From the NCBI RefSeq assembly GCF_003019035.1, contig NZ_CP027447.1: a stretch of DNA of 64,000 nucleotides; one strand, given 5' to 3'. The translations under genes were made by a program, and so were the position numbers. Positions within the stretch are counted from its first letter, which is position 1; every line of letters begins with the position of its first letter. This DNA comes from Escherichia coli (GTDB taxonomy: Bacteria > Pseudomonadota > Gammaproteobacteria > Enterobacterales > Enterobacteriaceae). Shown here one piece after another: positions 6,361-15,557 of the stretch. The notes beneath the pieces are model-generated. The model was not told the DNA's origin and did no database searches. It worked only from the letters and a program-made list of their open reading frames with translations.

Positions 6361-9300
6361 TTAGTTTAAAACACTCATATGATGTTCTTTAAAATTCTCT
6401 GCCTGTGCCAGCACTCCCATATAAACATCATCATTCGCTACTGGCGGGAACTTATGCTTGTGTAGAAGAAGAATAAGTTCAACTTTTAGTTTCGCTTTAA
6501 TATCATCGCGCTTACTCCAGTCAGGATATTTCGATGTGTTGTCAACCACGCTTTTCATCTCTTTTGCCAGTGACAGCATTTTTTCATCGTCATAGGTGAA
6601 CTGATATTTATCGCGCATATGAGCAAGAATGTCGAAAAACGCTTTTTCTTCAATATCAATACCTAAATCGGCCCATGTGCCCATTTCGGTTTTAATATCA
6701 TAGATAATATCGGTCATTTCCTGACTGAATGTATCGAATTCTTCACCGTTGAGTACATCATCTTCTCGCCGCTCATTATAACGATCTATAATCGCCTGGA
6801 AGCGGCGGGTGAAGTTAATCCCTTGCAACTGGTTCACTTTCTTGAAGTCGCTGATCGCTTTTTCCAGTAATTTTTGTAATAACTGGATCTTTGTTGCCGG
6901 AAGTTTGATCTTGTTAATTCGCGCCAGATAATCTTCGTCAAAAATATCGATGGATTCCGCTTTTTTATCGCCAAGAAAATAAATTTCTTCTACGCCATCA
7001 GCTTTTAGCGCTTCTGCAATCATTTCACGAACGCGTGCATTCATCTGGGTGACATCCGGTGCGTCACCTTTCGTCAGTTTGAAAACAATTGAACGAACAG
7101 CAAGATAATAGTGAATATGATCACGTTCTGTCTGTGATAGTGCTTCACTGCCGCAGCAGACGTCGTAGGCGGCTTTCATGCGTTTAACCAGTCCCATAAA
7201 ACGACGTTCAACTTTCTGGGTACGCAGAACAAATTCCGCCGCGCGGTTGAGGCAGGATAATTGCGCTTGTGGCTCACCACTAAAATAATCCCGACTGTCA
7301 AATTCGTAAAAGACTTGCCCCAACAAATCGAGATGGTTTTTAACTTCTATTACCGATTGCTGAATATCTTCAAAGTTGGTGGCATCAATGCGGGAATACA
7401 TTGCCAGTGCCTGGTTCATCTGACTTTTAATGCCGATGTAGTCCACCACTAACCCTTTACTTTTGCCTTCCAGTTTACGGTTAACGCGAGAAATGGTCTG
7501 GATAAGATTATGTTTTTGTAAGGGTTTATCAATATAGATGGTATCCAGTTCCGGGACGTCGAAACCAGTCAGCCACATATCAACAACAATGGCAATTTTG
7601 AAATTCGATTTAGCGTTTTTGAACTGCTTATCCAGCTCTTTACGATATTCTTTTGTGCCCAGTAAATCATAAAGCGCCTCGTCGTCATCTTTACCGCGCG
7701 TCATGACCATCTTCACCATTTCTGAAGGCGGTAACTCTTTCTGCTCCTGTTCCGTCAGGACGACGCCATCGGGGGCTTGCTTCACTTCAAACCAGGTAGG
7801 GCGAATAGCTTTAAGCTGGCGGTAGAAATCCCAGGCAATTTCACGGCTGGCACAAACAAACATGGCTTTGCCTTTTACGGTGGAACCTTCGGCTACGCGT
7901 TTTTCATAATGTTTAGCAAAATCTTCCGCGAGGGCTTTTAACCGATCTTCATCACCCAGTACCGCATTCATGGTTGCGGTGGCTTTTTTGCTTTCGTCGA
8001 TTTGCCACTCATTGGTGCCTGCGTTTGCGCACTCTTCGTAATACTTTTCGACTTCTTCCAGTTTGCTGGAGTCCAGGATCACTTTAGCCGCACGGCCTTC
8101 GTACACGATGCGTACAGTGATTTCATCCTGAACGGATTCGGTCATGGTGTAACTGTCGATCACCTCACCGAAGACATCGAGCGTCGCGTCAATCGGTGTG
8201 CCGGTAAAGCCAACATAGGTGGCGTTTGGCAGTGAATCGTGCAGGTATTTCGCAAAGCCATAAGTTTTGCGCACTTTTCCGCTTTCTTTATCGACGATGA
8301 CTTTCTGGTCGAGGTTAACCTGGCTGCGATGTGCTTCGTCTGAGATGCAAATGATATTGCTGCGTTCAGAAAGGAGTTCGGTGTCTTCGGTGAATTTATG
8401 GATCGTTGTCAGGAATACACCGCCACTATTGCGTCCCGCCAGTTGATTACGCAAATCTTCACGGCTGATAACAGGAACGATGGTGTCGTCGCCAATGTAA
8501 TTTTTGGCGTTGCACATTTGCGCAGAAAGCTGATCGTCCAGATCGGTGCGGTCGGTGATCAAAACAATGGTCGGGCTGGCAAACTCCACGCTCTTCATCA
8601 AAAGACGCGTTAAAAATTGCATGGTGTAACTTTTGCCACAGCCCGTTGCGCCAAAGTAGGTGCCGCCTTTACCGTTACCGAAAGGTTTACGCGCTTGCTT
8701 GATGCTGTAATAGAGTTTGCGGGCGGCATAGTACTGCGGATATCGGCAGCAAATTTTTACTTCGTGCTTAGCTTTATCCGGGAAGCAGATAAAGTTTTTA
8801 ATCACATCCAGCAGACGTACCGGATGAAACAGCCCCTGAATCATTGAGTGCAATGACGGAATTCCGTCCTGTTCACGGTTTTCATTACCGGTGACTTTGC
8901 GCCATGAGTAAAAATATTCATAGGGCGCAAACAGGTTGCCCATCCGGTTATTAACGCCATCGCTAATAATGCAGAGCGCGTTGTAGATAAACAGTTGCGG
9001 AATATCCCGGCGGTAGCGTTTACAGAGCTGCTTCCAGGCATCACCTATACTGGCTTCCTGCTCGCGCACCGCGCTTTTAAATTCAAAGACGACCAATGGC
9101 AGACCATTGATATAGAGAATGCCGTCAGGAATACGAGTCTGATTATCTTTGCCGGAGATTTTAAGCTGGTTAACAATCTTAATCCGGTTAAGCGGCGGAT
9201 TAATATAGGAGGGCGGGAGTTCTGCCGCCTGTTGCAACGGGACATCTTCGGCGTCAAATATCTGGCGCAGTGCGGCAGGTAGATGCCGGGTGTCGAGCAA

Positions 9301-9624
9301 TTCAATATAGAGATCTTTTTGTTGCCGATCGTCGCGTTTGAACAGAAAACCATTTGCCAGCCAGCGACAAAATGTTTTGTTGCTTTCATAAAGATCGGAG
9401 GCCGGAAGCGTGGTGAACTGTTTGATCAGTCGCTGAATCTCTTCTTCAGTAATGCCATCAGGCTGGTAGCGTGCCGCTAAATAATGACGGAGATCGTCTT
9501 CGATAATGACCTGATCGAGACTTGAACGAGGGACATTATCGCCGATCAGGTGTTGATATCCCTGATCCTGTAATAGTTCAATGATCGCTTGTTCTAATTT
9601 TGCTTCACTGAAAGAGAGACTCAT
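6361..9624 (-). CDS. hsdR: Type I restriction enzyme R subunit (HsdR; SF2 helicase/translocase plus nuclease)
   Basis: 1087 aa from ATG at 9624 (track starts at TTG 9636); helicase motifs YFGATGCGKS (Walker A), ICISDEAHRSQ (DEAH), VGFTGTPI. Confidence 0.9.
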   Translation of the reverse strand: MSLSFSEAKLEQAIIELLQDQGYQHLIGDNVPRSSLDQVIIEDDLRHYLAARYQPDGITEEEIQRLIKQFTTLPASDLYESNKTFCRWLANGFLFKRDDRQQKDLYIELLDTRHLPAALRQIFDAEDVPLQQAAELPPSYINPPLNRIKIVNQLKISGKDNQTRIPDGILYINGLPLVVFEFKSAVREQEASIGDAWKQLCKRYRRDIPQLFIYNALCIISDGVNNRMGNLFAPYEYFYSWRKVTGNENREQDGIPSLHSMIQGLFHPVRLLDVIKNFICFPDKAKHEVKICCRYPQYYAARKLYYSIKQARKPFGNGKGGTYFGATGCGKSYTMQFLTRLLMKSVEFASPTIVLITDRTDLDDQLSAQMCNAKNYIGDDTIVPVISREDLRNQLAGRNSGGVFLTTIHKFTEDTELLSERSNIICISDEAHRSQVNLDQKVIVDKESGKVRKTYGFAKYLHDSLPNATYVGFTGTPIDATLDVFGEVIDSYTMTESVQDEITVRIVYEGRAAKVILDSSKLEEVEKYYEECANAGTNEWQIDESKKATATMNAVLGDEDRLKALAEDFAKHYEKRVAEGSTVKGKAMFVCASREIAWDFYRQLKAIRPTWFEVKQAPDGVVLTEQEQKELPPSEMVKMVMTRGKDDDEALYDLLGTKEYRKELDKQFKNAKSNFKIAIVVDMWLTGFDVPELDTIYIDKPLQKHNLIQTISRVNRKLEGKSKGLVVDYIGIKSQMNQALAMYSRIDATNFEDIQQSVIEVKNHLDLLGQVFYEFDSRDYFSGEPQAQLSCLNRAAEFVLRTQKVERRFMGLVKRMKAAYDVCCGSEALSQTERDHIHYYLAVRSIVFKLTKGDAPDVTQMNARVREMIAEALKADGVEEIYFLGDKKAESIDIFDEDYLARINKIKLPATKIQLLQKLLEKAISDFKKVNQLQGINFTRRFQAIIDRYNERREDDVLNGEEFDTFSQEMTDIIYDIKTEMGTWADLGIDIEEKAFFDILAHMRDKYQFTYDDEKMLSLAKEMKSVVDNTSKYPDWSKRDDIKAKLKVELILLLHKHKFPPVANDDVYMGVLAQAENFKEHHMSVLN

Positions 9625-9690
9625 ATCGCGCTCCAACCCTGGCTAATTTCTGGTAAGCATTCCCGTATCAGTAGAAAACCTTACCAGAAA

Positions 9691-9710
9691 GCCCCTGATT
9701 TTACAGGGGC
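9691..9710 (-). terminator. Hairpin between hsdS stop and hsdR start
   Basis: gcccctg-atttta-caggggc inverted repeat; on the coding (minus) strand followed by tttctggtaagg; implies a separate hsdR promoter. Confidence 0.4.
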
Positions 9711-9718
9711 AAAATGCG

Positions 9719-11113
9719 TTATGCAGTTTCTGTATCGGTGTTGAGATCCGGAAGATCTTCCCGGGATAGCTCACCGGAGATGAGTTTCGGGAGCAGGGTG
9801 TCGCGGAGGTTGCTCAGGACTATTTGATTATTATTATGTGACTTGTCAATCCAAGGCATAACGATATTATAAAAAGTATTAATTATTTCAACATCTGGCA
9901 TAACTACATGTTCAGCCTCAAGAAAATATTTTGTCTGGAAGTTAGCGATTCCTGTACTTTGGTTTTGGTATTCCCACATTTTTCCATCGTTATATATTTT
10001 ATTGAGGTGTAAACTAATTATTAGCCCTATCTCTATAGATAACGGCTCAAACTTGCGACAAAAACTAGCAGGTTCAATAATACCCCCTAATCGACTTATA
10101 ATCTGTTCAGTCATGAAAATTGAACGGCCAGTTGACTGCGTTGGACTTCCTCCTGAAACTTCTATTATAATATCACCATTATTAATTTTTCTTTTTTCGA
10201 GTTTTTTGGGTTCTACCCATCTACATGGGGCAGAACTCATTTTCCCTGAAATTAACTCCGGGATATCAGTACCGCGCACTATCACTGCTTGAATTGTATG
10301 CTTTTCATCTCTGGAATCACTCCCCCAGTCACCACCAATTGTATTTTTTAGTAAACTATTAACATTTGAAAACTTCCAACCTTTAGGAATTAAACCTAAC
10401 TCCGTTTCTTCAAATTCACTTGGGAAAAGCGAGCGGATTTCCGCCGGAAGCGGTTTAAAATCTGTACTATTACGTACTTTTTGACGCAACTCGGCACGAG
10501 ATTGCAGAGCCTCCGGGATTGGATTTCCTGCATCCAGAGCGTTATCAACCACCGGATCAAAATCCACAAACCAGGATTTGAACAGGGTTTGGGACATTTG
10601 TTCTAATGACTTATTTATTACTTCATTGGATTTTAGCTTACTAAATATAAGAGTGTTTGTTTTTGCGATATGTTGGCAATATTTATCTGGTGCAAGATTA
10701 AATTCATAATCTAATATGGCTGTTTTATCACCCCTTGGCATTTTGGTGCCTTTGGATGTTAAAACAGTATGTTCGATGAATTTTTGATCCATTAATACTG
10801 ATAGAATATAATTAGAATTAATATTTTTTTTAGGACGGAATACAATTACATCGTTAGAACAGCCACCAGTTCGATCTGCAAGCCATAGTTTTTTAAAATA
10901 TGTTCTGATATTCGAGAATAAAATATCTCCAGAATGAAATTTTGTTATTTTCCCTGTGCTAGGTTTACTATTTGCTATTGATATACCTCCAAAATTGGTA
11001 AGCATATTTTCAGTTGATATGTAATCGCAAAGACTAATTTGCGATACATCAACTTTAGTAGTGATGATATCTACAACTTCTTTAAGTTTTATTTTCTCCC
11101 ACTTACTCCCCAT
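9719..11113 (-). CDS. hsdS: Type I R-M specificity subunit (HsdS), two target-recognition domains
   Basis: 464 aa from ATG at 11113 (MGSKWEKIKLKEVVDII...), overlapping the hsdM stop by 11 nt; TRD-like motif GDILFSNIRTYFKK; strongly AT-rich DNA by eye. Confidence 0.85.
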   Translation of the reverse strand: MGSKWEKIKLKEVVDIITTKVDVSQISLCDYISTENMLTNFGGISIANSKPSTGKITKFHSGDILFSNIRTYFKKLWLADRTGGCSNDVIVFRPKKNINSNYILSVLMDQKFIEHTVLTSKGTKMPRGDKTAILDYEFNLAPDKYCQHIAKTNTLIFSKLKSNEVINKSLEQMSQTLFKSWFVDFDPVVDNALDAGNPIPEALQSRAELRQKVRNSTDFKPLPAEIRSLFPSEFEETELGLIPKGWKFSNVNSLLKNTIGGDWGSDSRDEKHTIQAVIVRGTDIPELISGKMSSAPCRWVEPKKLEKRKINNGDIIIEVSGGSPTQSTGRSIFMTEQIISRLGGIIEPASFCRKFEPLSIEIGLIISLHLNKIYNDGKMWEYQNQSTGIANFQTKYFLEAEHVVMPDVEIINTFYNIVMPWIDKSHNNNQIVLSNLRDTLLPKLISGELSREDLPDLNTDTETA

Positions 11114-12722
11114 AACCCAGCACCTCCAGATTCTGGCGAATCGCACGATCCAGTTCTTCCGCCTGCTTCATCTGCTCAAACAACGTCTTCGACAATTCGC
11201 GCATTTTCGTCTCAAATGCCACGCCGTCCTCTTCCTGCTCGGCTGCACCTACATAGCGGCCCGGTGTCAGAACGTAGTCGTTATCTTTAATGTCTTGCAG
11301 GGTCGCAACTTTGCAGAAGCCAGCCTGGTCTTCATATTTTTCCAGCTTGCTGTCACCACGCGCAATCCGTGCAGCCAGTTCTTCCGGCGTACTGCGCCAG
11401 GCATGGTAGGTATCGGCGATGGTGGCAATATCTTCCGTTGTTAACTCTTTAGTTGTGCGGCTAATCATGGTGCCGAGGTTACGCGCATCAATAAACAGCG
11501 TCTCGCCCTGACGATCACGATAACCTTTGGCCGGATCGGCAGCCTTCGATTTGGTCATAAACCATAAACACACCGGGATCTGCGTGGTGTAAAACAACTG
11601 ACCTGGCAGAGCGATCATGCAGTCAATCAGATCATTTTCGATCATCTGTGCACGGATCTCGCCTTCACCGCTGGTGTTAGAACTCATCGAACCGTTTGCC
11701 AGCACAAAACCTGCTGTGCCGTTAGCCGACAGCTTGGAGAGCATATGCAAAATCCAGCCGTAGTTGGCGTTACCGGTTGGCGGCATACGATACCCAGCAA
11801 AACGTGGGTCTTTGGTTAATTCGGCTTCATTACGCCAGTCTTTCAGGTTGAACGGCGGGTTCGCCAGAATGTAGTCGGCTTTCAGGTCCGGGTGCTGGTC
11901 GCTAAAGAAAGTGTTTGCCGGTCGTTCGCCGAGGTTAGCTGAAAGACCGCGAATGGCGAGGTTCATTTTTGCCAGTTTATACGTCGTGGCAGTCAGTTCC
12001 TGACCATACAGCGCGATATCACGGCTTTTACCCTGATGGCTCTCGACAAACTTCACCGACTGCACGAACATCCCCGCCGAACCGCAGCACGGGTCATAAA
12101 TTTTGCCCTGAAAGGGTTCGAGCATTTCAGTTAACAGCGTAACCACACATTTAGGCGTGTAGAACTCACCACCGCCTTTGCCTTCAGTTGCGGCAAACTT
12201 ACCGAGGAAGTATTCGTAAACGCGTCCGACCAGGTCTTCTTTCGATAACGTTTCAACGTCAGTTTCGTGTGCCAGCGTTTCGATGTTGTCGATGGTATCA
12301 ATCAGTGACGCCAGTTTTTTGGTTTCCAGATTCTGACGGCTGAAGTAGTTGTCTGGCAGCGCGCCTTTCAGGGTTGGGTTACGTTTCTCAATGGTCGAGA
12401 GGGCGGTGTCAATACGAACCGCAATATCGTCCTGTTTGGCATTTTGTTTGATAAACGACCAGCGCGCCTCTTCCGGCAGGTAGAAAATGTTGTCCTGCTG
12501 GTAGAACACTTCCATCTCAAGGAAGTCAGCTTGCCCATCGGCAATCATTTTTTTGCGGCGTGCTTCAAACTTATCGCTGATGAATTTCAGGAACACGAGG
12601 CTCAACACCACGTGCTTGTATTCGGAGGACTCAACGCTACCGCGAAGCTGGTTTGCTGTATCCCATAATGTTTCTTCAAAGCCTTTCTTTGCTTTGGCTT
12701 TTTTAGTTGGTGCTTTGGCCAT
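11103..12722 (-). CDS. hsdM: Type I R-M N6-adenine DNA methyltransferase subunit (HsdM)
   Basis: 539 aa; SAM-binding IYDPCCGSAGMF and catalytic NPPF (ILANPPFNLKDW). Confidence 0.9.
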   Translation of the reverse strand: MAKAPTKKAKAKKGFEETLWDTANQLRGSVESSEYKHVVLSLVFLKFISDKFEARRKKMIADGQADFLEMEVFYQQDNIFYLPEEARWSFIKQNAKQDDIAVRIDTALSTIEKRNPTLKGALPDNYFSRQNLETKKLASLIDTIDNIETLAHETDVETLSKEDLVGRVYEYFLGKFAATEGKGGGEFYTPKCVVTLLTEMLEPFQGKIYDPCCGSAGMFVQSVKFVESHQGKSRDIALYGQELTATTYKLAKMNLAIRGLSANLGERPANTFFSDQHPDLKADYILANPPFNLKDWRNEAELTKDPRFAGYRMPPTGNANYGWILHMLSKLSANGTAGFVLANGSMSSNTSGEGEIRAQMIENDLIDCMIALPGQLFYTTQIPVCLWFMTKSKAADPAKGYRDRQGETLFIDARNLGTMISRTTKELTTEDIATIADTYHAWRSTPEELAARIARGDSKLEKYEDQAGFCKVATLQDIKDNDYVLTPGRYVGAAEQEEDGVAFETKMRELSKTLFEQMKQAEELDRAIRQNLEVLGYGE

Positions 12723-12785
12723 GATGAACTCTGTTCAGATAAATTGGGTCGCTATTGTAATGGTAGAGACGGCAGATTTCGCCCT

Positions 12786-13952
12786 TTAATCCATCTCCAG
12801 CTCATCAAACAACTGCAAATCTACATCCAGCAATTCCACTGCATTGCTGCGGCGAATGCCGACGTTATTTTCGATTAACAGTTCCAGTAAGCGATCGCCG
12901 TCGATAAGCGTAATGGGCGCGGCCCCCGGAAAGAGCGCCGCTTCTGCACATTTCGCTGCAAATTTCCCGGTGGTGATGAGCGTACCGCGAATGGCCTTGT
13001 GGTAAGGCAACGCTCCGCGCAACTGGTCGATATACGGTCGAGTGATGGTGTTCTGCATTCTTTTGACCTGCACCACTTCGGTAATAGTGGTGATGCCGAC
13101 CTGCACCTGACCAATCACGTCCACACCTTTATCGCCTGAGGCTTTGGTCACTTCGACCTGCTCGTAGCCCATTGCTTCCAGTAATTGACCGACCAGTTGT
13201 TCAAATTTGTACGGGTTCATCGTGCTGATTTGTTCGCGCAGCAGCTCTTTTTGCTGTTCGTTATAGCGTTTTACCGCTTCCAACAGCTCTTTACGCGGAT
13301 CGCTTTTTCGTGCAGGCAACGCTTTTCCAAGCCAGGCGCGCCCGGTATCGGTGATGCGATAGCTCATGCCTTCACGGTTAACCATGTCACGGTCGATAAG
13401 GTTATAGAGACGGGAGTAGAGCGTGCTTTTCACTGAACTTGCTGACGCGAATTTCGAATGCTGATGCAAAAAGGCCTGCCATTCCGGCAATAAATCGGCG
13501 CGGCGCGACATTTCCCGGCCAGCCAGCAGCTCAAGCAGTTGCAGAATGCCTTCCTGGTCGTCCAGTGAACGCAGCGTTTTTTCGTCATCTTGCAGGAATT
13601 TTTGCCCGCGCGAGGTGGGCTGCCAGGTATCGTCTGGCGTGCTTTCCATCAGCTCAAACTGGGGATAGTTGAGGAATAAGTAGCAGCCGTAGCTGTGGCG
13701 CGGGTTCAATATGTGATTATCGGTATCCCAAATACGACGGGCGATGTCGGCATCTTCACCCGTTAAGCGTTCGCTGATCCACAGGTCAGGTTCCGACCAG
13801 TCAACGGGTTTTTGCGGCGTTCCGGTTTGCTCGTGAATGGCAGTAATCATATTGCGCACCGCTTTCAGGGAATAGCCTGAGACGGCTTTCATCATAGCCT
13901 TAACTTGCGCATAGGTAGGAAAAAGCGGGGTAATGACTTTGTAGTTTTTCAC
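12786..13952 (-). CDS. Mrr-family (Type IV, modification-dependent) restriction endonuclease-like protein with extended N-terminal region
   Basis: 388 aa, GTG start at 13952 with AAGGGA SD; C-terminal region (GDKGVDVIG...VVQVKRMQNTITRPYIDQL...LITTGKF) resembles the K-12 Mrr catalytic domain as I recall it; N-terminal 250 aa not recognisably Mrr-like. Confidence 0.7.
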   Translation of the reverse strand: MKNYKVITPLFPTYAQVKAMMKAVSGYSLKAVRNMITAIHEQTGTPQKPVDWSEPDLWISERLTGEDADIARRIWDTDNHILNPRHSYGCYLFLNYPQFELMESTPDDTWQPTSRGQKFLQDDEKTLRSLDDQEGILQLLELLAGREMSRRADLLPEWQAFLHQHSKFASASSVKSTLYSRLYNLIDRDMVNREGMSYRITDTGRAWLGKALPARKSDPRKELLEAVKRYNEQQKELLREQISTMNPYKFEQLVGQLLEAMGYEQVEVTKASGDKGVDVIGQVQVGITTITEVVQVKRMQNTITRPYIDQLRGALPYHKAIRGTLITTGKFAAKCAEAALFPGAAPITLIDGDRLLELLIENNVGIRRSNAVELLDVDLQLFDELEMD

Positions 13953-14148
13953 GGTAATCCCTTAACGACAGCGAGGTGTTTAGTGTGCCATGTCAGGCGA
14001 GAAATTCTATTGGATGAATCAAGTCCAACTCACACATTGTCAATTTCATGGTTGATTATTCGAAACGTGATGCTATTTCCAACATCAACGCTATAATTGC
14101 AGAATAATTGTACATACATTTTTGTATATACAATTAGGGATGGCAACT

Positions 14149-14268
14149 ATGCCAATGGAGTTTGAATGGGATGCAAATAAGGCCAAAGGTAATCGGGTGA
14201 AACATGGCATCCGCTTTGAAGATGCGGTGTTAGTGTTTGATGATCCACAACGAACGGAATCGCTATGA
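14149..14268 (+). pseudogene. brnT: brnT (DUF497 toxin) remnant with internal deletion
   Basis: MPMEFEWDANKAKGNRVKHGIRFEDAVLVFDDP matches the BrnT N-terminus, stops after 39 codons; a BrnT-like C-terminus (NERNRYEHG-stop, ending 14278) is in the +1 frame. Confidence 0.55.
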
Positions 14269-14567
14269 GCATGGTTAAACATAAACGAGGGACCTCCTCT
14301 ACACTCGATGTGCAGCATGAGGCCGAACTGAAGGCGCTGGCGAATAAATCCGACGAAGATATTGATTACAGTGATATCCCACCTTCCAGCGATGAGCAAT
14401 GGTCTAACGCAGAACGCGGTAAGTTTTATCGGCCATTGAAAACTCAGGCCTCGGTGCGTATTGATTCTGATGTGATGGAATGGTTGAAGCGACCAGGTAA
14501 AGGCTATCAAACTCGCCTGAACGCAATTTTACGTGAAGCGATGCTGCGCGATCAGAACAAAAAATAA
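14265..14567 (+). CDS. brnA: BrnA-like antitoxin (ribbon-helix-helix / DUF4415 family)
   Basis: 100 aa; C-terminal ...VRIDSDVMEWLKRPGKGYQTRLNAILREAM matches BrnA signature; start overlaps the brnT remnant in typical TA fashion (alternative ATG at 14271). Confidence 0.6.
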   Translation: MSMVKHKRGTSSTLDVQHEAELKALANKSDEDIDYSDIPPSSDEQWSNAERGKFYRPLKTQASVRIDSDVMEWLKRPGKGYQTRLNAILREAMLRDQNKK

Positions 14568-14600
14568 TTCAGGCCGCCACATGGCGGCCATCATCCAAAA

Positions 14601-15557
14601 TTACTTCCTCAACCCCGCAAACGCCGCCCGAATCTCATCCTCCGGCAGCTGAATCCCGATAAACACCATCGTGCTATGCGGTTTTTCATCGCCCCATGGC
14701 CTGTCCCAGTCGGCGCTGTAGAGGCGCTGGACACCCTGGAACAGCAGGCGATTAGGTTCGCCGTCAATCCATAGCATCCCTTTGTAACGCAGTAGTTTAT
14801 CCGCCGACTCCAGCAGCAGGTTTTCCATCACGCGGGAAACTTCGCTGATATCTACCGGGTAATCCAGTTCCACCACAATCGACGAAATATCGTTTTGTTT
14901 GTCCGCGATAAAGTGGAAACGCGGTTTGGTGCTGACGACGTTCTCTTCCAGCATAAAACCGTTGGTGTTGAACAGCAGGCCCAGGTCGATGTCGCCGTGG
15001 GTGACGGTGTAGATCGGTGCACGGGCGTTGATGCGCGCCAGGCGTTCACGCAGTTTTTCTGCTTCGCCTGCGACGTCGGTTTTAGTCAGCAGAATACGGT
15101 CGGCGTAGCCAACCTGTGACTGGGCGATGGTGAACTGGTTCATCTGCTCATCGGCATGTACCGCATCCACCAGCGCAATCACGCCGTCCAGCAGGTAACG
15201 CTGGCATAAAATCTCATGGGAGAAAAAGGTCTGAATAATCGGGCCGGGATCGGCCATGCCGGTGCATTCAATCACCAGACGGTCGAACTGAATATTGCCC
15301 TTGTCGAGATTATCCAGCAGGTCGAGTAGGGCGTCTTCCAGCTCGTTGGAGCGCGAACAGCAGATGCAGCCGTTGGTCAGCGTTTTGATCTGCGTGACGC
15401 GATCGCCAATCAGTTGATCATCAACGGAGACTTCGCCGAATTCGTTTTCAATCACGGCAATCTTGTAGCCGTGTTGTTCGTTAAGAATATGGCGCAGCAG
15501 GGTGGTTTTGCCGGCGCCTAAAAAACCGGTGAGTAGGGTAACTGCAATCGGGTTCAT
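14601..15557 (-). CDS. yjiA: CobW/P47K-family GTPase (zinc-binding) YjiA
   Basis: 318 aa from ATG at 15557 (MNPIAVTLLTGFLGAGKTTLL; P-loop); track ORF extends upstream. Confidence 0.9.
   Translation of the reverse strand: MNPIAVTLLTGFLGAGKTTLLRHILNEQHGYKIAVIENEFGEVSVDDQLIGDRVTQIKTLTNGCICCSRSNELEDALLDLLDNLDKGNIQFDRLVIECTGMADPGPIIQTFFSHEILCQRYLLDGVIALVDAVHADEQMNQFTIAQSQVGYADRILLTKTDVAGEAEKLRERLARINARAPIYTVTHGDIDLGLLFNTNGFMLEENVVSTKPRFHFIADKQNDISSIVVELDYPVDISEVSRVMENLLLESADKLLRYKGMLWIDGEPNRLLFQGVQRLYSADWDRPWGDEKPHSTMVFIGIQLPEDEIRAAFAGLRK

Follow-up and report, generated by a model that had tools for sequence, protein, structure and literature searches.

Results

A brnTA module with a destroyed toxin gene

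The stretch of Escherichia coli DNA analysed here, 64,000 nucleotides in length and referred to as the window, very probably carries a chromosomal type II toxin-antitoxin (TA) module, brnTA, in toxin-first decay: a complex deletion destroyed the toxin gene brnT, and the antitoxin gene brnA is intact. A preliminary description of the window had already read the locus as an inactivated brnT beside an intact brnA, and this reading is borne out by the mapping of the gap against intact alleles, by a toxin-domain match that spans 30 of 77 model positions in the remnant as opposed to all 77 in an intact protein, and by the recurrence of the lesion in 103 genomes. What we found is not the pair of active toxin and neutralising antitoxin that makes a functional type II TA module, since truncation and a frameshift affect the toxin gene. 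The features of the locus are compiled in Table 1.

Table 1 Features of the brnTA locus and its surroundings in the window. Positions count from the first nucleotide of the window.
Feature	Position	Strand	Evidence and remarks
Mrr_cat restriction-endonuclease gene, 388 aa	12786-13952	minus	Pfam PF04471, E 3.8e-29
Perfect -10 hexamer TATAAT, likely brnTA promoter	14092-14097	plus	Read from the sequence; 52 nt 5' of the brnT ATG
Inverted repeat TAATTGTACATACA / TGTATATACAATTA, putative BrnA (RHH) operator	14105-14136		14-nt arms, 4-nt spacer, 93% complementary
brnT remnant ORF, 39 codons	14149-14268	plus	tblastn, Pfam; the same ORF is a PGAP pseudogene in SCU-301
Deletion junction, net 158 nt of brnT (codons 35-87) gone	14251-14252	plus	Alignments to intact alleles
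Former 3' end of brnT (ERNRYEHG and TAA), now out of frame	14252-14278	plus	tblastn, alignment
brnA, complete antitoxin gene, 100 aa	14265-14567	plus	Pfam PF14384; 7VD7 match; invariant residues present
GC-rich hairpin GGCCGCCATGTGGCGGCC between convergent brnA and yjiA	14572-14589		T-run on the yjiA side only

Position of the locus

The two plus-strand ORFs lie inside a 648-nt intergenic interval between the Mrr_cat gene and yjiA, both of which are encoded on the minus strand. yjiA ends at 14601 and is convergent with brnA. The hairpin between the two genes has a perfect 7-bp stem, with the arms GGCCGCC and GGCGGCC enclosing ATGT. The Mrr_cat gene is located upstream of a series of type I restriction-modification genes, hsdM (11103-12722), hsdS (about 9719-11113) and hsdR (6361-9636), so that the minus-strand restriction genes together span 6361-13952 of the window. 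This layout differs from that of strain K-12, in which hsdR-hsdM-hsdS are accompanied by a divergent mrr. K-12 contains no brnTA, and its mrr is a different gene, in opposite orientation to the 388-aa gene of the window and separated from yjiA by 45 nt. The preliminary description had correctly placed the locus between an Mrr-like gene and yjiA, but its remark that K-12 has essentially no spacer there has to be amended to these 45 nt, next to an mrr that is not the same gene. The brnTA locus lies on the margin of the hypervariable region of restriction genes in E. coli, the immigration control region. Two other strains, SF-166 (L011) and LHM10-1 (L014), have an IS1 element in place of the Mrr-like gene directly 5' of the brnTA promoter region.

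Sequence of the brnT remnant

The ORF at 14149-14268 translates into MPMEFEWDANKAKGNRVKHGIRFEDAVLVFDDPQ, followed by RTESL and a stop. Using tblastn, residues 1-34 of the intact E. coli BrnT were placed at 14149-14250 (97% identity, E 7.8e-20), whereas residues 88-95 (ERNRYEHG) were found at 14252-14275 in the +1 frame with 100% identity, directly ahead of the old brnT stop at 14276-14278. The remnant accordingly consists of 34 BrnT codons and five frameshifted codons and ends with a TGA (14266-14268) that shares bases with the ATG of brnA (ATGA). The flanks are the same as those of intact alleles, and orthologous position and sequence together identify the ORF as a descendant of brnT. In the preliminary description the N-terminus of BrnT had been recognised in the first 33 codons, with the frame thought to terminate right thereafter; the N-terminus stands, but the frame runs for 39 codons to its TGA. 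Likewise, a BrnT C-terminus is indeed present in the +1 frame, but it comprises eight BrnT-derived codons and not nine, as the additional 'N' was made by the junction.

The 39-aa peptide matched the Pfam model of the toxin family (PF04365, BrnT_toxin) at positions 1-30 of 77 only (E 3.2e-8), whereas the intact 95-aa E. coli BrnT matched it from 1 to 77 (E 5.8e-24). Scanning the remnant and BrnA against NCBIfam returned nothing useful, and Pfam was needed for both.

Mapping and origin of the deletion

The alignment to intact brnT/brnA pairs that the preliminary description had proposed as a check was carried out with the alleles of ECOD1 (L002; brnT 95 aa, brnA 100 aa), 4314, SF-166 and Nissle 1917 as references. 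It revealed one internal 158-nt gap in brnT, between 14251 and 14252, and left brnA untouched. In place of the estimated loss of about 50 central codons, the alignment gives 53 affected codons (35-87). As 158 nt equal 52 codons and 2 nt, the deletion shifts the reading frame.

All ten sampled deletion alleles show GAACGG right after the junction, where intact alleles have GAGAGG; the lesion is thus linked to a GA to AC change at 14254-14255. Among 1863 E. coli records with that stretch of brnT, GAACGG was absent and every record had at least two mismatches, and an exact-pattern search through the genomes of 100,044 species likewise turned up no intact brnT with GAACGG. Microhomology at the deletion ends was looked for and none was found. 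Because GAACGG is common to the sampled deletion alleles and absent from intact ones, the sequence comparison points to a deletion that arose once, and as a complex event rather than a clean deletion. The lesion could equally be written as a 158-nt deletion with the GA to AC change or as two deletions of 14 and 144 nt which retained an internal GAACG pentamer. Between the deletion alleles, the flanks diverge by as much as 4.5%, and their polymorphisms overlap those of intact alleles. This implies that the allele is old, or was recombined between backgrounds, or both.

In a manual count from the alignment, the remnant showed five nonsynonymous and two synonymous changes among the deletion alleles. 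The substitutions D8G, D8N and F30L (alleles L004, L006 and L013, codons 8 and 30) hit residues that are invariant across 10 homologues. Both observations suggest that the remnant is under relaxed constraint, as would be expected for a pseudogene. Its ATG and its end exactly at the start of brnA were kept in 10 of 10 sampled deletion alleles.

Predicted fold of the toxin and the parts that were lost

An AlphaFold2 model of the intact BrnT, calculated from an alignment of 10 sequences, reached a mean pLDDT of 90.8. Its secondary structure comprises a short strand (residues 4-6), two helices (9-19 and 23-31), four long strands (36-43, 46-55, 58-68 and 74-83) and a C-terminal helix (86-94). All four long strands of the predicted RelE-like core fall inside the deleted residues 35-87, and the remnant lacks the beta-sheet. 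As the whole long-strand sheet is gone, a RelE-like nuclease could not be formed. What is left, strand beta-1 and helices alpha-1 and alpha-2, cannot be the nuclease according to the model, and we expect RNase activity and toxicity to be absent. The intact E. coli protein is closely related to chain A of PDB entry 7VD7 (E 2.6e-53, about 85% identity as counted by hand from the alignment) and distantly to the Brucella abortus BrnT (PDB 3U97, E 9e-4). A literature search found no paper citing 7VD7.

The short ORF might alternatively be the normal, functional form of a small BrnT-like protein. Such a protein would agree with the open 39-codon frame and with the N-terminal motif FEWD..K..N..KHG..F, which no other part of the family matches in conservation. 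We nevertheless consider this explanation highly improbable, since a length of 94-99 aa is the rule in E. coli (1781 genomes) and in plasmid homologues, the last five codons are frameshifted, the whole beta-sheet is absent, and some deletion alleles have substitutions at D8 and F30, both of which are invariant in the family. The preliminary description had named short BrnT-like peptides as the normal gene form as one finding that would speak against it; instead, full-length proteins dominate in E. coli and on plasmids.

Distribution of intact and deleted brnT

The region of the locus matched 2112 of 5426 complete E. coli genomes, in most of them in two pieces over a span of 806 nt, compared to 648 nt in the window. 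Of about 2111 locus-bearing genomes, 1781 retained 80% or more of brnT, and roughly 330 have a truncated copy. For the deletion allele we used a probe of 50 nt centred on the junction, which cannot seed on intact alleles, and detected the identical junction in 103 of the 5426 genomes, which come from many hosts, countries and laboratories. The nearest genome, SCU-301, has a reported identity of 100.0% over 12 kb and carries the same allele, with a single mismatch across the 648 nt between the Mrr_cat gene and yjiA (99.8%). In nine of nine genomes inspected, PGAP annotates brnT as a pseudogene ('BrnT family toxin; incomplete; missing C-terminus') and lists brnA as an ordinary CDS. The annotation of ECOD1, on the other hand, lists an intact 95-aa 'BrnT family toxin' that overlaps a 100-aa 'BrnA antitoxin family protein'. 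The idea that sequencing or assembly produced the gap, and that the isolate truly has a full-length brnT, is contradicted by the 103 independent complete genomes with the same junction and by the shared allele of SCU-301, and its probability is practically nil. The deletion is hence genuine, and the assembly error that the preliminary description had wished to exclude by read support is practically out of the question.

The lesion of the window is one of several losses of brnT. A second one is a deletion of about 288 nt, reaching from the promoter region to about codon 76 of brnT, the junction of which was found in 109 genomes. In FDN-4 (L015, 1472-1520) and SA186 (L016), the equivalent of about 14062-14088 of the window is thereby joined to the 3' end of brnT. 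The -10 hexamer, operator and ribosome-binding site are all lost with this lesion, and the brnA ORF is left intact; alleles of this kind have an island with GmrSD and Fic upstream in place of the Mrr-like gene. A third loss is an 11-nt deletion in LHM10-1 (brnT at 798-1074 of L014), which is annotated as 'frameshifted' and again accompanied by an intact brnA. In STEC383, the 288-nt brnT query matched over 277 nt only.

Homologues also occur on plasmids, and 751 of 761 plasmid matches covered at least 80% of the 95-aa BrnT query. Six plasmid homologues from other genera encode BrnT proteins of 94-99 aa in toxin-then-antitoxin order, with overlaps of 14-29 nt, mostly of 14 nt. Some are carried by small enterobacterial plasmids, for instance p35_E of K. 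aerogenes and a plasmid of C. freundii with 73% identity, which is also the highest value among plasmid relatives in Enterobacteriaceae if near-identical E. coli records are set aside. A BrnT-like gene occurred in only 11 Escherichia plasmid records, four of them more than 95% identical; three of these four records (655-834 kb) may be misassigned chromosomal sequence. At the DNA level, no second brnT-like sequence was detected in the 5426 E. coli genomes, plasmids included, and tblastn found no second copy within the window. The single match in the phage collection was a 501-kb Salmonella genome record, and thus no real phage copy.

Regulatory elements upstream of the remnant

A scan for sigma-70 promoters returned no plus-strand site that passes the -35 criterion, and the likely promoter is read from the -10 hexamer alone. 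The inverted repeat lies between this hexamer and the ribosome-binding site of brnT and is conserved throughout the aligned E. coli alleles. BrnA has been described as a member of the RHH proteins by which transcription of brnTA is controlled (PMC11980606). Judged by its sequence and position, the inverted repeat is the obvious candidate for a BrnA operator. The deletion allele of TUM17543 (L013) has a further deletion, of 11 nt between two ATAATTG direct repeats, equivalent to about 14093-14103 of the window, which shortens the distance from the -10 hexamer to the inverted repeat.

The antitoxin gene

The product of brnA matched the Pfam model PF14384 (BrnA_antitoxin) from 1 to 68 of 68 positions (E 6.5e-17). 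Its residues 14-57 correspond to the 44-residue antitoxin chain that is complexed with the toxin in 7VD7 (E 1.3e-16), and the N-terminal toxin-binding segment is therefore present. All 27 columns that are invariant across 11 homologues are kept. Starting with its ATG at 14265, inside the old end of brnT, the gene overlaps the stop of the remnant as well as the former brnT stop. The BrnA signature and the overlap with the toxin end that had been noticed beforehand are hereby substantiated.

The brnA ORF was open in 13 of 13 sampled alleles without a working toxin, which represent three independent lesions. Its pN/pS ratio of 0.13-0.17 is equal in toxin-less and intact alleles; we rejected this ratio as evidence of selection on toxin-less brnA, as recombination has made most of the polymorphisms common to both groups. 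Variants confined to alleles without a toxin comprise A24V, D32E, P40S and W46C, compared to two synonymous ones. This predominance of nonsynonymous private variants hints that brnA may also be drifting in toxin-less alleles. W46C, found in VCSW7 (L005), affects an otherwise invariant residue.

The GA to AC change at the junction removes the GAGG Shine-Dalgarno sequence of brnA, and the predicted duplex with the anti-Shine-Dalgarno sequence weakens from -7.8 to -3.5 kcal/mol. The ribosome-binding site of the remnant ORF is strong, with a predicted duplex of -8.0 kcal/mol. With the Shine-Dalgarno sequence of brnA weakened in this way, BrnA synthesis would rest on re-initiation after the remnant ORF.

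Could the orphan BrnA be kept by selection? It might provide immunity against plasmid-borne BrnT (anti-addiction) or work as an independent RHH regulator, with the remnant serving as a leader ORF that couples translation into brnA. The UGA of the remnant (AUGA) would then cause ribosomes to re-initiate at brnA, making up for the lost Shine-Dalgarno sequence, and the recurrent loss of brnT with retention of brnA, in roughly 15% of the locus-bearing genomes, would mean that selection acts against the toxin and in favour of the antitoxin. This would fit with the intact brnA ORF in every sampled toxin-less allele across three independent lesions, with flanks up to 4.5% apart and hence an allele that is not very recent, with the conserved ATG and stop of the remnant in 10 of 10 sampled alleles, and with BrnT homologues on small enterobacterial plasmids; anti-addiction and regulatory roles of orphan antitoxins have been discussed (PMC10790755). 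However, the 5426 E. coli genomes contain no second brnT-like DNA sequence, only 11 Escherichia plasmid records hold a BrnT-like gene, and real phage copies were not found. Moreover, the Shine-Dalgarno sequence of brnA is weakened in every deletion allele, promoter and operator are lost entirely in the FDN-4-type allele, and the private variants of toxin-less alleles are mostly nonsynonymous, including W46C. Finally, brnA adjoins the conserved yjiA flank and may persist through linkage and lack of time. On balance, we regard retention of BrnA by selection as unlikely.

Discussion

We favour the reading of the locus as a TA module in toxin-first decay, and the remaining parts might still work as follows. 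The operon, with its surviving promoter region, putative operator and brnA, would still be transcribed. Ribosomes would enter at the strong ribosome-binding site of the remnant ORF, translate it, stop at the UGA in AUGA and then re-initiate at the overlapping AUG of brnA, by which BrnA would be made. Lacking its cognate toxin, BrnA would presumably be an autorepressor only, acting at the inverted repeat.

The loss of an antitoxin while the toxin is active is lethal. Toxin-first is consequently the sole viable order of decay, and an orphan antitoxin is the expected intermediate. For practical purposes, the strain should be scored as BrnTA-negative with regard to toxin function and as a carrier of an orphan BrnA. 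The phenomenon as such is already known, and the allele is already flagged in the RefSeq annotation. Beyond correct annotation the importance of the locus is little, apart from a modest value as a clean and datable case of toxin-first decay. The single-origin lesion on diverged haplotypes, together with at least two independent further losses of brnT, offers a possible natural test set for selection on orphan antitoxins.

Compared to known BrnT/BrnA systems (PF04365/PF14384), such as BrnTA of Brucella abortus (3U97) and the enterobacterial system of 7VD7, the locus has the same toxin-then-antitoxin order, with the start of brnA overlapping the end of brnT, and it encodes a full-length BrnA that has both the conserved C-terminal domain and the N-terminal segment matching 7VD7. 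The inverted repeat upstream is also what is expected of an autoregulated TA operon. Unlike these systems, the toxin gene of the window lacks codons 35-87 and is frameshifted, so that there is no working TA pair. The RefSeq/PGAP record of SCU-301 (HHJ43_RS24435) contains the same sequence with the same pseudogene call, beside a 'BrnA antitoxin family protein'; it records the N-terminal fragment only, whereas the out-of-frame 3' end, the junction signature and the other losses of brnT are not mentioned there. Orphan antitoxins have been reported to abound in every E. coli sequence type (PMC10790755). The locus resembles such orphan antitoxins and degraded chromosomal TA loci of E. coli and Klebsiella in that the antitoxin was left after loss of the toxin, and it does not differ from them in kind. 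What sets it apart from other orphan antitoxins is that it represents one specific and datable allele, a complex deletion of single origin that is carried by 103 of 5426 genomes.
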